Source: a virus (lineage: Duplodnaviria; Caudoviricetes). Taken from it: a stretch of 64,000 bases of DNA. This document shows, in pieces, positions 7,383-60,943 of this stretch (positions are counted from its first letter, which is position 1; the number at the start of each line of letters is the position of its first letter). The stretch covers positions 32,001-96,000 of the IMG/VR virus record IMGVR_UViG_3300014205_000003; one strand, written 5' to 3'. The notes beneath the pieces are model-generated. The model did not search any database. It saw only the letters and a program-made list of their open reading frames with translations, and was not told the DNA's origin. Position numbers and translations under genes: made by a program.

Positions 7383-7455
7383 GCACTACTGGTGTTCAAT
7401 GGTAGCACATGACCCTTCCAAGGTTATGGAATCAGTTCGAATCTGATGTAGTGCT
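7383..7455 (+). tRNA. tRNA-Gly (TCC)
   Basis: Acceptor stem gcactac/gtagtgc, D-arm gtgttcaatggtagcac, anticodon arm tgacc-cttccaa-ggtta, T-loop ttcgaat; U discriminator; CCA not directly adjacent. Confidence 0.9.
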
Positions 7456-7519
7456 CTCCACTTAACTCTTATGTCAAAAGAAGATACAAGTCACAAAGCA
7501 GATCAGACGGAGGTGTCGG

Positions 7520-57290: not shown

Positions 57291-59078
57291 TTATCGAGGC
57301 TTCCAGTCAGGGCGCTTCGGCTCAACCTCTTCGTCATCCTCATGACTAGTTGCACCACTCAATTGAGGGTAGCTTTTCCTCAAATACCATATTGCAGAAC
57401 AAGCGAAGTTCACCGCGTGTACGAAGTCATCACTGCGACCTGCTTTACGATGAAAAAGAAGGATGTCAGAGCCTCGTGGGCTTTCTGATCTTTCCTCACC
57501 AATATTAAGAAAATCAGCTAATAAAGTCCAGCATTTATCCTGTCTGGGGAACTTAACTTTACCAGCTTTAATTGCTGCAAACAAGACTCTTAGAGAGCGA
57601 GCTTTGTCTATCAGATAGCATTTACGACTTCCATCATTCTGCCTATTCGTACGGATGATCTTGTGTCTGGGAGCCCAGTCGTAGGAGAAGGGTACAACAG
57701 TGGCAGGATTCTGTCCTTGTTCAATCATCAAGGCTTCGCGGATATTACCGGCACCGCCGTAGTCATGCGCAAACATATCTGGGTGCAACTGCGCATTTAA
57801 CCAACTAAGCTTACGAGATTCATCGTTAGCGTTCTGACTAGTAGGCATACGCTCCATATAGGAGATTTCGATTACATCGCTTCCATAGATCTGATTCGCA
57901 CAGACATATGTAGTTGTCGATGTGGCATCGTTACCACCACCAGACCAGTCTACGCCTGTAATGATGATACCAGACTGTTTCTGCTTCTCTAGGGAGCGCT
58001 TAAGTGTGTTATCATCTTTCTCTGATGTAGAGCAGGCGTTTGCGAGTTCCGAATGACTAATAGGCATTGAACTGTTATCCGAGGATTCTCCTAGAATCTC
58101 ATTCTCAAACTTGCTCTTTTCATAGGTGTTCATCTTGTGAAGAAGCTGTTGCCACTTAACAGGAGAGCTCAGATGCAGAGGGTGGGTGACCTGAGAGATG
58201 TGGATAGACTTGAATGTGTTGATGTACTGTGGTTGTTCATGCAGAAAGTAACCATCTTCTGTGTAAATAGGCTTCCCACACTTAGCACAGATAATACCTT
58301 CTTTACCGATCATTCTCATTAGATCGTATCTCAGTGCTGCTATGTTCTCGTGTTTACAACTACCTGAACGACAAGGAATTGTCCACTCGCCTTGGCTTGA
58401 TCGCTCATACAAAAGCTGAATGAAATTGTCTAAAGTCTTCGGAGTGCCGCTGTACATATAGAAACCGTACTGTTTACTGGCACTCATCGTCTCCCCAATC
58501 ACAGGCACAAAACTGTCAGTGAGATCTTGCACTTCGTCAAAAATCACCTGGCTCACGGCTGAAATACCCCTAATCCTATTACAGGAGGTAAAGGCATAGG
58601 AGAAGATTTCTTCAGATCGGTTCTTCCATTTATGATAGAGGGCACCATGTCTGCAGGAGGACGAATCAAAGCAGCCTTTGAATGGGCTCGAATCCACGAA
58701 GCTGCTTGAATAATCATCGTTGAGTCGTTTAGATTGAGCAAACAGAGGAGTAACTACTAGGGTTTTGAAGTCGGGTATCAAGATACTTTGCAGTTTGGAT
58801 GTAGCCATTAGGGAGGCAGACTTACCTACCTGTCGTGCAGACTTCAGCAAGAATTCCCTTGGGCGTCCGAGAAGCTGGAAGAGGGGGGCTAGTTGGTAGT
58901 GTTCTTTTAGTCCGAAAGGCTTGCCTTGGAAGCTCAAGAGGAAGAGAAGAGGTAACAGATTCGGAAGGCCGTTAGCTATAATTGAGTCGGAGAGCCTAGT
59001 CAGACTTGAGGCTAACTCCTCAGAGCTGTAGACTTTGTTTTGTAGATCGTCTATATCAGTTTGCAATGCTGTATTCAT
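57291..59078 (-). CDS. terL: Terminase large subunit (gpA-like, Zn-ribbon linker)
   Basis: Walker A KSARQVGKS, Walker B VIFDEVQD, SGTP coupling motif, nuclease GVDW and DDFVHA. Confidence 0.88.
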   Translation of the reverse strand: MNTALQTDIDDLQNKVYSSEELASSLTRLSDSIIANGLPNLLPLLFLLSFQGKPFGLKEHYQLAPLFQLLGRPREFLLKSARQVGKSASLMATSKLQSILIPDFKTLVVTPLFAQSKRLNDDYSSSFVDSSPFKGCFDSSSCRHGALYHKWKNRSEEIFSYAFTSCNRIRGISAVSQVIFDEVQDLTDSFVPVIGETMSASKQYGFYMYSGTPKTLDNFIQLLYERSSQGEWTIPCRSGSCKHENIAALRYDLMRMIGKEGIICAKCGKPIYTEDGYFLHEQPQYINTFKSIHISQVTHPLHLSSPVKWQQLLHKMNTYEKSKFENEILGESSDNSSMPISHSELANACSTSEKDDNTLKRSLEKQKQSGIIITGVDWSGGGNDATSTTTYVCANQIYGSDVIEISYMERMPTSQNANDESRKLSWLNAQLHPDMFAHDYGGAGNIREALMIEQGQNPATVVPFSYDWAPRHKIIRTNRQNDGSRKCYLIDKARSLRVLFAAIKAGKVKFPRQDKCWTLLADFLNIGEERSESPRGSDILLFHRKAGRSDDFVHAVNFACSAIWYLRKSYPQLSGATSHEDDEEVEPKRPDWKPR

Positions 59079-59128: not shown

Positions 59129-59716
59129 ATGACTCGTTGCAGCAATTGTAATGAAGAGAAAGACGATAGTTGTTTTGGGCATGATGGTTCGAAGAAAAAT
59201 AAACTAAGATCCAGATGCAAAGACTGTATGAATTTACAAGCATTAGAGTACCGTACAAAGAACCCAGAGAAATATAGAGAAAGGTCTATGGATTATCGTA
59301 AAGCAGATCCTGTCAAACACTACAAAGGTGTTAGGAAAGCTCTTTTAAAGAGACGTGAGAACCCTGTAGAGGCAGAGCTGTTGCGAGCAAGGGACAGGGC
59401 TCGAAATAGAGCAAATCCTAATGTTAAGAGAAACAGCAGGATGAAACGTACATATGGCATCACTCTTTTAGATTTTGAAGAACTGAAGAAACAGCAAAAA
59501 CAGATGTGCGCCGTTTGTGGTAAACCGTTCTTAAAAACGACACCTCATATTGATCACGATCACAAAACAGGTGTGGTTAGAGGATTGCTATGCTCGCATT
59601 GTAATATTGGGATAGGCAATCTTATGGATAATCCAAGAATCCTTGAAAATGCGATTACATATCTGAAAATTCCGCGCTTAGCTATAGGTGAAATTACGTG
59701 TAATTACGCCTTTTAG
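59129..59716 (+). CDS. Endonuclease VII-like homing endonuclease
   Basis: YGIT...Q..CAVC..HIDHDH.TG.VRGLLCSHCN.GIG. Confidence 0.9.
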   Translation: MTRCSNCNEEKDDSCFGHDGSKKNKLRSRCKDCMNLQALEYRTKNPEKYRERSMDYRKADPVKHYKGVRKALLKRRENPVEAELLRARDRARNRANPNVKRNSRMKRTYGITLLDFEELKKQQKQMCAVCGKPFLKTTPHIDHDHKTGVVRGLLCSHCNIGIGNLMDNPRILENAITYLKIPRLAIGEITCNYAF

Positions 59717-59800
59717 GCCTCTTTTCAGCATAGCTATAAAGCCTTAAGTTTCAAGCACTTAGTTGGCATACTTAATTGTAAGCCTACAACCGTCCGTTTT

Positions 59801-59837
59801 GGACCCTATCGCCATACACAGGCAATAGGGTCTTTTT
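59801..59837 (+). terminator. Hairpin with U-tract (terminator or tiny RNA)
   Basis: gaccctat...atagggtc followed by ttttt. Confidence 0.7.
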
Positions 59838-60002
59838 GTGTGTATTTGGGGGCTGTTCTGCCTTTCTCAAAACAGGTCAAAAAGTGGCCTAAAAAGGGCT
59901 GTTTTAGCCTGCTTCCAGAGCCCTCCAAAACCTCTCTTTTGGACCCTTAAAAGGGAGGTTAAAAGTGGGCATCTTTACCTGTAAGACTTATATCTAGTTT
60001 TG

Positions 60003-60190
60003 GACCCTGTGGTAGAGCCGTGGGCTTCCATCTGTACCATGCGCAGGAAGCATCTGACCCAGCATTCTTAGCGGCTGACGAGACTCTGAAAATGAGTTGA
60101 AACATGTCTATGTAGACATGTACCGCGGAGTGACCCTAAGCTGGGGAATAACTGGTCACCAGTGGTACGGCTTTACTACAGGGTCTTTTT
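60003..60190 (+). ncRNA. Stem-closed ~185-nt structured RNA containing a hammerhead ribozyme
   Basis: 19-bp terminal stem 60003-21 / 60167-85 with two G-U pairs, then U-tract. Confidence 0.75.
60071..60126 (+). ncRNA. Hammerhead ribozyme (type I topology)
   Basis: gcgg-CUGACGA-gacuc/gaguu-GAAA-caugucu/agacaug-UA-ccgc; predicted cleavage after GUA (A60122). Confidence 0.85.
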
Positions 60191-60497
60191 CTCAGTTATT
60201 CGGAGTATTTGCAGAAAGTAGAAGAGGCACCCCATAGAGTTGGGCCTCCTGCAGAGCTCCATTTATTTGGGCTGCTGAACATGCTCCGGGTCGTATAGAC
60301 TCTTCCAGACTCCCAAGCAGGGTTTGGTTAGCATCAGTAAGCAGCCCTTCTTTCAAACGGCGGGGGTAATGGAAGTCATCTGAACAATGACTGCTTTGCA
60401 GAGGACACTCTGCTAGAACGCCTAGCAAGCTCACTGGAGAGCTAGTCATAAGGAGTTGCGAACCTTCCCCTTGCCACCATTCAAACAGAGGAGACTC

Positions 60498-60788
60498 ATG
60501 AAGACCTTGGAAGAGATCCTGCAACCACTGCAGGAGCAGCAAGATGCGATGATGAAAGAACTTGGAGACTTTCTTTCTCCGCATATGGAGAAGGCTGTTT
60601 TGCAAGAACCGTGTGCTTCTCAGTGGCAGATACGAATTAAGTACGACGCGAATGTCTTTGACCGAGTGCTTCACATTTGGAACAAAGTGTTCGTGAAGTA
60701 CTGTGATGATCGAGGGTGGGTAAAAACCTCCCTCATAGTTGCTGAGAGTGCAACTCTTATGTTTTCGTTTTCTAAGAAGGAGAGTTAA
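60498..60788 (+). CDS. Hypothetical early-type protein
   Basis: ATG at 60498 after GAGGAG. Confidence 0.7.
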   Translation: MKTLEEILQPLQEQQDAMMKELGDFLSPHMEKAVLQEPCASQWQIRIKYDANVFDRVLHIWNKVFVKYCDDRGWVKTSLIVAESATLMFSFSKKES

Positions 60789-60790
60789 AA

Positions 60791-60943
60791 ATGGCAACCG
60801 AAGTGAAAATCGTGAAACAGTCCCCCCGCCCCCGCGAAATCACCGGCCATATGCTGTGGAAAAAGAATCAGCCAATCCGGCAACTGATTCGGACTTCCCG
60901 CGACATGGTGGTTCTCACGGGTAAAGAGCTCGACACCCGCTAA
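60791..60943 (+). CDS. Small basic protein (50 aa)
   Basis: AAGGAG RBS; MATEVKIVKQSPRPREITGHMLW... Confidence 0.6.
   Translation: MATEVKIVKQSPRPREITGHMLWKKNQPIRQLIRTSRDMVVLTGKELDTR

Follow-up and report, generated by a model that had tools for sequence, protein, structure and literature searches.

A predicted hammerhead ribozyme nested in a widespread, pseudoknotted small-RNA family of phages

What is a self-cutting ribozyme doing inside an RNA that is closed upon itself? The question is raised by positions 60003-60190 (plus strand) of a 64,000-nucleotide stretch of phage DNA (the window), which corresponds to positions 32001-96000 of an IMG/VR phage genome that is complete, at 188,069 bp, and bears direct terminal repeats. 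The original prediction for this locus was a hammerhead ribozyme nested in a larger closed RNA structure. Bacterial and phage hammerheads were found by the thousands in 2011, and the usual guess at their function is the cutting of polycistronic mRNAs. We consider it highly probable that the element belongs to a widespread family of small phage RNAs folded into two interlocked pseudoknots, with a hammerhead in a linker that would cut after A60122 and leave the two pieces together.

Inspection of the sequence confirmed the parts of the hammerhead that had been predicted: a complete core, with CUGACGA at 60075-81, GAAA at 60099-102 and a GUA triplet that places the cut after 60122; a stem II with a G.U closing pair; a 7-bp stem III; and a stem I of gcgg/ccgc. 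The features of the hammerhead are as follows.

60071-60126, plus strand: type I hammerhead (from sequence, descriptor, covariance model R1 and stem I covariation)
60071-74/60123-26, plus strand: stem I, GCGG/CCGC (from sequence)
60075-81, plus strand: core C3-A9, CUGACGA (from sequence)
60082-86/60094-98, plus strand: stem II, GACUC/GAGUU, with the loop UGAAAAU at 60087-93
60099-101, plus strand: GAA, which is G12 A13 A14 (from sequence)
60102-09/60114-21, plus strand: stem III, consisting of A15.1-U16.1 (A60102-U60121) and 7 bp
60122, plus strand: A17 (H17, not G; from sequence)
60122/60123, plus strand: predicted cleavage site (standard hammerhead rule applied to the core)

All of the conserved core positions (C3 U4 G5 A6 N7 G8 A9, G12 A13 A14, the pair A15.1-U16.1 and H17) carry the bases expected of a hammerhead. 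The minimum-free-energy (MFE) fold holds all three hammerhead stems, each with a pair probability of ~0.7 or more; stems II and III are closed by loops, and stem I is open. Folding of the 188-nt stretch gave -81.3 kcal/mol (z = -6.4) for the plus strand and -68.1 kcal/mol (z = -4.5) for the minus strand. A descriptor search of the 188-kb genome returned a single type I hammerhead, namely 60071-60126. When 150 random genomes of the same dinucleotide make-up were searched, there were 0.09 loose descriptor matches per genome and none with stems as long. A chance origin of the motif is unlikely.

Relatives of the hammerhead were collected from IMG/VR phage contigs with the pattern CTGANGAG-N4-TGARAWT-N4-YGAAAC, taken from stem II of the window and from a similar hammerhead (L105). 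There were 140 matches; 133 proved to be complete type I hammerheads, among them 105 distinct ones. A covariance model, R1, was built from 81 phage hammerheads with a stem III region of at most 28 nt, and the window was excluded. Stems I, II and III covary among these 81 sequences, and the unselected stem II is 99.5% paired, with 4 of its 5 pairs covarying. R1 recognized 60070-60127 over the full model length (42.1 bits, E 3.5e-12), a score to be read with the caveat that the pattern used to fetch the 81 sequences had been modelled on stem II and its loop in the window. No second match of near this strength was found by R1 over the genome. The original prediction had proposed a comparison with covariance models and a search for covariation in homologs. 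R1 recognizes the hammerhead, as just described, and the Rfam models recognize neither it nor its canonical relatives; all three hammerhead stems covary in relatives, and the enclosing fold carries compensatory changes in 16 of 22 pairs.

Other searches for hammerheads yielded less. A first pattern retrieved mostly one conserved protein-coding sequence, possibly MazG-like, and the single true hammerhead among its matches was L105, whose flanks are unrelated to the window and not unusually structured. A metagenome scan for hammerheads with the G.U pair and the loop UGAAAAU gave five true hammerheads, none of which has a relative of the outer domain; the remaining matches resembled eukaryotic large-subunit rRNA, as judged by eye, or chance.

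The hammerhead resembles the type I hammerheads of phages and prophages (PMC3088659; RF00163, clan CL00010) in its core (CUGANGA...GAAA...UH), in its three stems with stem I open and in its location in phage intergenic DNA. With more than 100 of them it shares a 5-bp stem II and the loop UGARAWU. Members of this subfamily (L158, L140, L201 and ~100 other IMG/VR loci) have a 5-bp stem I, a 5-bp stem II and the loop UGARAUU, and 92% of them have an A at the 5' side of the stem I 5' strand. They typically follow a stop codon and precede a ribosome-binding site, with median gaps of 0 nt from the upstream stop and 37 nt to the next ribosome-binding site, as Perreault et al. 2011 (PMC3088659) had described. 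The hammerhead of the window differs from them in several respects. It lies deep in non-coding DNA; it is not isolated between cistrons but is inserted in a larger conserved RNA, a motif of which supplies the 3' strand of stem I; and it has G10.1.U11.1 instead of G-C. Furthermore, the helix between its 5' and 3' flanks is 21 bp long, by far the longest in a comparison of 114 subfamily members (median 9, maximum 14).

The larger RNA was recognized by comparison with other phages. An nhmmer search of collected phage DNA with the element revealed a homolog in L238, a locus of an unrelated GC-rich phage, with an alignment that spans positions 15-169 of the 188-nt element (E 6e-10). The alignment contains the conserved blocks CCGUGGGCUUCC, GGAAGCAUCUG, GGAGUNACCC and GGGAAUAACUGGUNACC, together with compensatory changes in two crossing helices; stems II and III differ in sequence between the window and L238, and their pairing is kept in both. 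Patterns made from the blocks found 17 loci in IMG/VR and then at least 120. A covariance model, R2, was made from 13 seeds, with base pairs given only for H1, Pa (both described below) and stem I of the hammerhead; it yielded 81 matches in 100 sources, with E values down to 1e-37.

The family is present in more than 100 IMG/VR phage contigs and in genomes or metagenome-assembled genomes (MAGs) whose labels cover at least 8 bacterial phyla. The phages that carry it have hosts among the Proteobacteria, Actinobacteria, Firmicutes, Bacteroidetes, Cyanobacteria, Chloroflexi, Planctomycetes and Patescibacteria. A strict pattern of the 3' block found no match in bacterial genomes. It was too strict, since a looser pattern gave 16 matches in bacterial genomes and MAGs, all 16 of which were confirmed by R2; their labels include Lysobacter, Acinetobacter, Pseudomonas, Cellvibrionaceae, Alphaproteobacteria, Mycobacterium, Thermomicrobiales, Bacteroidetes, Enterenecus, Phycisphaerales and Patescibacteria, among others. 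An unannotated copy also lies inside a tRNA array of the cultured cyanophage Microcystis phage Mwe-JY26 (PP438418.1, ~99016-99116). At the family loci, Rfam 15 matched tRNAs only and no other RNA family. The suggestion of an undescribed class of phage noncoding RNA has accordingly held up, with many homologs, compensatory changes and no Rfam 15 match; since Rfam 15 does not contain it, the family is a candidate for a new class of functional RNA. Full-text literature searches centred on hammerheads likewise turned up no account of the RNA that houses the ribozyme, of its pseudoknots, of the constant insertion point or of the circular permutation. Phage hammerheads are known; these four features of their setting are apparently undescribed.

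The family core is ~100 nt long with ~35 near-invariant bases, and in the window it occupies 60018-60170. Its strands follow the order H1, Pa5', linker, Pb5', Pa3', Pb3', which the window reproduces; because Pa crosses Pb, this part of the fold is a pseudoknot. Over 74 distinct sequences, 98.2% of cells are paired, and compensatory changes occur in 16 of the 22 pairs. None of 500 shuffles equalled this pairing, and slid controls reached 33-43%. The features of the enclosing RNA are as follows.

60003-60017/60171-60185, plus strand: closing helix Pt (from the fold), extendable to 60021/60167 (19 bp, two G.U pairs)
60018-60023, plus strand: 5' motif CCGUGG (consensus NCGUGG; from family alignments and hexamer counts)
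60024-29/60046-51, plus strand: hairpin H1, GCUUCC/GGAAGC, with a 16-nt loop (98.4% paired and 6 of 6 pairs compensatory in 74 sequences)
60032-60040/60162-60170, plus strand: PK1, 9 bp between the H1 loop (CUGUACCAU) and the 3' tail (GUGGUACGG)
60052-60057, plus strand: junction AUCUGA (consensus AUCUGG; from the family alignment)
60058-63/60140-45, plus strand: helix Pa, CCCAGC/GCUGGG (96.8% paired, 5 of 6 pairs compensatory)
60123-60129, plus strand: motif CCGC-GGA (consensus NCGY-GGA), whose first four bases are the 3' strand of hammerhead stem I
60130-35/60154-59, plus strand: helix Pb, GUGACC/GGUCAC, which crosses Pa (99.5% paired)
60146-60153, plus strand: GAAUAACU, between Pa and Pb, invariant in all members collected, most of it (AAUAACU) being required by both fetch patterns
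60186-60190, plus strand: U-run UUUUU directly 3' of the closing helix, a possible intrinsic terminator

Helix Pb, which formed no part of the R2 structure or of the fetch pattern, pairs completely in 65 of 67 members, and its three central pairs show 4, 4 and 5 pair types. PK1 was assessed through the longest helix between loop and tail in 67 members, the median of which is 8 bp compared with 5 bp when the tails were permuted; the sequences that form it are unrelated between members. A closing helix of at least 10 bp abuts the 5' motif in 31 of 67 members, and its sequence too is unrelated from one member to another. The U-run directly after this helix is present in the window and absent in most members of the family. 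The single-stranded family motifs appear in the window as CCGUGG, AUCUGA, CCGC-GGAGU and GGAAUAACU (NCGUGG, AUCUGG, NCGY-GGAGU and GGAAUAACU in the family). We also noted that the first bases of NCGUGG (60018) and NCGYGGAGU (60123) agree in 54 of 55 distinct members (C/C in 29, G/G in 22, U/U in 2 and A/A in 1), members without a hammerhead included; the relation is one of identity, not of complementarity.

These comparisons revise the outer structure as it was first drawn. The 19-bp terminal helix is present with its G-U pairs, but its innermost 2-4 pairs are not conserved and compete with PK1. The side hairpin gcuucc/ggaagc is the conserved H1. The pairing gugacc/ggucac, which had been taken for a competitor of the stem I extension, is in the homologs the conserved helix Pb. 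As for the two proposed extensions of stem I, the region of cccag/cuggg is conserved, as helix Pa, and cuuag/cuaag is not. A hairpin of the MFE fold, CUGG-UCA-CCAG, likewise is not conserved in homologs; the tail 60162-70 pairs with the H1 loop 60032-40 instead.

The hammerhead occupies one place in this fold. A hammerhead core lies between Pa5' and NCGY-GGAGU in 55 of the 81 R2 matches, and in 15 the linker is only 9-14 nt long. Among the remaining matches, three have the core UUGAYAA, an extra base is present in one, and a few show no more than a small hairpin. The UUGAYAA members (L389:6096-6246, L320:13044-13188 and L314:3055-3202) have U3-A8 in place of C3-G8, a covariation of this core pair reported by Perreault et al. 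2011 (PMC3088659). Stem I also covaries in the homologs (AU 25, GC 20; GC 28, CG 22). Since NCGY is the 3' strand of stem I, the cut would always fall immediately before NCGY-GGAGU.

Further inspection of the matches revealed a second gene topology. In L283 and at five other loci the gene is circularly permuted, with the hammerhead first, followed by the 3' half, a hairpin that replaces the closing helix, and the 5' half. The ends of the permuted RNA coincide exactly with the point at which a nested hammerhead would cut. A hammerhead is present in each of the six permuted members, and every member that lacks one is nested. At the level of sequence, comparison among members shows the fold, the fixed insertion site and purifying selection on the catalytic core.

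Taken together, these features suggest the following course of events. The RNA would be transcribed from a promoter-like unit, TGGGCA-17-TATATC, to the U-run. Its conserved core (60018-60170) folds with the H1 loop paired to the 3' tail (PK1) and with Pa crossing Pb, and in this phage a 15-19-bp helix followed by UUUUU closes the core. The type I hammerhead, which fills the only linker of the fold that varies, from Pa to NCGY-GGAGU, would cut after A60122 once transcribed. The products would be a 120-nt piece with a 2',3'-cyclic phosphate end and a 68-nt piece that starts with the 5'-OH of C60123 (CCGCGGAGU...). Pa, PK1 and the closing helix would bridge both pieces and hold them as a nicked RNA. 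The association energy of the two halves was calculated as ~-28 kcal/mol (RNAcofold, pseudoknots left out). We infer that cleavage takes place, that the nicked complex persists and that transcription runs from the promoter-like unit to the U-run; a nicked two-piece complex would fit the association energy, the bridging helices and the natural permutation that opens at the hammerhead site.

Several observations weigh against this interpretation. A gathering-score scan of the window with Rfam and an E-value scan of 59700-60500 returned only a weak, wrong-permutation match to Hammerhead_3 (RF00008; 17.2 bits against a gathering score of 48.5), and RF00163 gave no match in the whole genome. The pair 10.1-11.1 is G.U instead of the Watson-Crick pair G10.1-C11.1. 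The base 5' of stem I is U, compared with A in 109 of 118 relatives, so the tertiary contact may be weaker and cleavage slower. Sixteen nested members have no hammerhead, so the break is not essential to the fold; L296:2231-2330 is an example of a hammerhead-free member. The window was one of the seeds of R2; its score of 111.9 bits follows by construction and is no independent support. A sigma-70 scan flagged neither copy of the promoter-like unit, and the promoter is for that reason one that we infer. Finally, the element was not found near the terminase gene in the closest relatives of the phage, whose terminases are at most 52% identical.

The silence of Rfam extends to hammerheads of canonical form. 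Twelve loci with canonical subfamily members, including five copies in L158, gave no Rfam hammerhead at the gathering score, and the Escherichia coli member described below scores 24.7 bits against a gathering score of 34. The hammerhead of the window thus stays below the gathering scores together with the rest of its subfamily. Since Rfam misses canonical members too, its silence is no evidence against the hammerhead; its models overlook a large phage type I subfamily. G.U at 10.1-11.1 is rare and was seen in 4 of the 105 subfamily phage hammerheads and in the 5 metagenome cases; the example in L248 is closely related to a G-C form. Only mispairs were excluded here by Perreault et al. 2011 (PMC3088659), and a wobble still counts as paired. 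The G.U pair, the U 5' of stem I and the deep non-coding setting could lower the rate of cleavage, and they leave the catalytic core untouched.

Three points, namely no Rfam match at the gathering score, the G.U pair and the U in place of a conserved A, would fit a structured spacer or terminator that resembled a hammerhead by chance and did not cut. We regard this as extremely improbable. None of the 150 random genomes had a motif as strong, the 42-bit score was obtained with a family model built without the window, and in homologs this site carries hammerheads whose stems differ, some of them with U3-A8. The hammerhead is very likely to be a genuine self-cutting one.

What, then, might the RNA do? 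The neighbourhood of its genes offers some indications. For about one-quarter of members a tRNA gene is no more than 150 nt away, and some run from the 3' end of a tRNA to the next tRNA; others have terminators of their own or lie beside terminase, Q or holin genes. No constant neighbouring protein family was found among 105 flanking open reading frames (ORFs). Our best guess is that the family is a stable phage RNA of the tRNA-operon type, selected for the chain break or for a free 5'-OH at NCGYGGAGU. Hosts so diverse, and junction bases that hardly vary, point either to an activity intrinsic to the RNA or to a target that all bacteria have; that the target is a component common to very different bacteria is speculative. 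A fuller proposal, which we put forward tentatively and think more doubtful than the structural assignment itself, is that the hammerhead serves to make a precise break, with a free 5'-OH, at NCGYGGAGU and not to separate genes. The nicked, pseudo-symmetric double pseudoknot would then be the active effector RNA, the broken fold would be reached by way of either a nested ribozyme or a permuted gene, and the target would be shared across phyla (for example RNA repair or end sensing, the tRNA machinery or the ribosome).

The nested arrangement also recalls a regulated ribozyme switch, as the original prediction suggested. The double-pseudoknot domain would in that case sense a ligand or macromolecule, gate the access of NCGY to stem I and so regulate cleavage. 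The junction bases are strongly conserved across hosts of many phyla, as in an aptamer; stem I emerges directly where Pa and Pb meet, and a conserved motif of the domain supplies its 3' strand; and regulated hammerheads were raised as a possibility by Perreault et al. 2011 (PMC3088659). However, 16 nested members lack a hammerhead, so the domain does not depend on one, and permuted genes place the hammerhead outside the domain, with its 5' strand unjoined to it. Moreover, tRNA arrays and late leaders are not a riboswitch-like context, and no alternative pairing that sequesters NCGY was found. We see no support for the switch and consider a natural allosteric ribozyme very unlikely.

The conserved junctions could instead belong to an unrecognized catalytic RNA, or to one related to tRNA processing, which the hammerhead merely releases or provides with its ends. 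This would fit the conservation of the junction bases across at least 8 host phyla and a cyanophage, the proximity of about one-quarter of members to tRNA genes (some beginning at a tRNA 3' end), the lack of a constant neighbouring protein family and the identical first bases of the two NCGUGG copies in 54 of 55 members. Known ribozyme and riboswitch models in Rfam gave no match, however, and the strand order is not known to match the topologies of hepatitis delta virus (HDV)-like, twister, pistol and glmS ribozymes. An RNA of this kind is unlikely. To our knowledge, the order Pa5'-linker-Pb5'-Pa3'-Pb3' fits none of these four. HDV-like, twister, pistol and glmS RNAs, 6S RNA, Y RNA, a mimic of a CRISPR repeat and a ToxI-like repeat were rejected as identities for the domain by strand order or by lack of an Rfam match.

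We turn next to the place of the element in the genome. The element lies inside a 780-nt non-coding stretch between the endonuclease VII gene upstream and a run of small plus-strand ORFs downstream. The neighbouring features are as follows.

57291-59078, minus strand: large terminase gene, upstream neighbour
59129-59716, plus strand: endonuclease VII gene, upstream neighbour
59966-59994, plus strand: promoter-like unit TGGGCA-17 nt-TATATC, read from the sequence, just upstream of the RNA
60498, plus strand: start of the run of small ORFs, downstream neighbour

A 201-codon ORF on the minus strand (60192-60797) is probably not a gene, because its coding potential is negative (-0.06, compared with +0.08 to +0.11 for 4 of 5 neighbouring genes tested). 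The non-coding interval 60191-60497 folds modestly better than its shuffles (z = -1.94) and contains no promoter-like site.

Local alignment revealed that a region of ~70 nt upstream of the RNA is duplicated. One copy, 59742-59811, lies within a unit at 59742-59837 and the second is at 59945-60012; both terminate in GUUUUGGACCCU. The first copy is followed by a short hairpin, GACCCUAUCGCC...GGCAAUAGGGUC-UUUUU, and the second precedes the hammerhead RNA, whose outermost stem bases and U-run are the same as those of the short upstream unit. The shared ends read GGACCCU...AGGGUC-UUUUU, with AGGGUC-UUUUU of the short unit at 59827-59837. It looks as if the RNA were seated in the loop of a duplicated promoter-plus-terminator unit. 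Examined as a terminator, the element has a stem of 15-19 bp and UUUUU, but its "loop" is a 145-nt folded domain, and a terminator scan (loops of 3-8 nt) makes no call.

This setting bears on a purely local explanation, in which the hammerhead, the 19-bp helix and the U-run process or terminate an early-gene leader and insulate the early genes from the endonuclease VII transcript, or give the downstream mRNA a protected, paired 5'-OH end, and the RNA has no function itself. The position in 780 nt of non-coding DNA between endonuclease VII and small plus-strand ORFs, the UUUUU end and the short paralogous hairpin with its U-run 350 nt upstream are all in keeping with such a role. Subfamily hammerheads, moreover, lie mostly between cistrons, with a median gap of 0 nt to the upstream stop, and Perreault et al. 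2011 (PMC3088659) proposed mRNA processing as a function. Set against this, the domain is conserved in unrelated phages in tRNA arrays, in Q-to-holin leaders and in stand-alone units with terminators; most members lack a U-run directly after the closing helix; and the ~35 conserved unpaired or junction bases would be superfluous for a terminator. We give a local role alone little credence and continue to favour a family RNA that would be broken at a conserved site.

Conservation of gene order did not lead to homologs, because the nearest terminase is only 52% identical and is not accompanied by the element. A blastn search of 50,697 phage records found no homolog of 59700-60500, a search with the terminase gene alone found no relative in IMG/VR, and no convincing hammerhead was present near the terminase gene in 80 loci fetched with a terminase profile. 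In L002, the terminase of which is 49% identical, the intergenic region differs from that in the window. We noted there, in the equivalent divergent region (L002:4284-4830, minus strand), several copies of a GCCUAAAAGGGUCAUUUUGGGGGUAU motif and good sigma-70-like promoters, and no hammerhead; a weaker echo of the motif occurs in the window at 59885-59910 (GGCCUAAAAAGGGCUGUUUUAGCC).

A gene that occurs in two topologies related by circular permutation, with a mature form of base-paired pieces, has precedents in two-piece transfer-messenger RNA (tmRNA) and in permuted and split tRNA genes, which are found in phages or tRNA-rich regions. The present family resembles these in its nested and permuted topologies, in its two-piece form (here a predicted one) and in its phage or tRNA-rich location. 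Unlike tmRNA and tRNA, it has no T-arm, acceptor or tag-coding features, and the break would be made by a built-in ribozyme and not by cellular RNases. ARAGORN found no tmRNA in the window (where it found only tRNA-Gly at 7383-7456) or at the family sites, and Rfam found none either. GOLLD, ROOL and the species 1 and 2 RNAs of the T4 tRNA cluster are conserved structured RNAs that are carried by phages, often in or beside tRNA arrays. The family is likewise phage-borne, structured and often in or beside tRNA arrays; it differs from them in having no Rfam match, a much smaller core of ~100 nt, interlocked pseudoknots and a facultative hammerhead. With this small core, its broad range of host phyla and its standing as a candidate new class of functional RNA, the host RNA is of interest in its own right.

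A permuted member is also present in an E. coli lambdoid prophage (L408; NZ_CP042899.1, 1499755-1500352), where it lies in the 600-nt gap between Q and holin, at 1499784-1500094, after a tR'-like terminator. R2 scores in the E. coli Q-to-holin leader were 53.9 and 26 bits. A 311-nt E. coli query that included flanking leader had at least a partial high-identity match in 427 of 5,426 complete E. coli genomes, and at least 80% of the query was matched in only 14. The matching places number 454, of which 121 are on plasmid records; none is annotated among the matches listed. With a hammerhead fixed in a conserved RNA and a permutation at the same position, the function of phage hammerheads becomes testable, and the prophage members between Q and holin bring it within reach of routine experiments.

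Two minor observations concern hammerheads at other loci. At L183:2600-3010 (minus strand) and in L145, tRNA genes begin a few bases downstream of subfamily hammerheads, and a cut would therefore leave a 5' leader of 6-7 nt on the tRNA. At L138:2990-3160, L141:555-665 and L207 (~363), short-stem type I hammerheads are followed by a conserved RNA that looks different by eye (UCGUAGCC...GGGUGAGCA) and that appears to be a second hammerhead-associated structured RNA.

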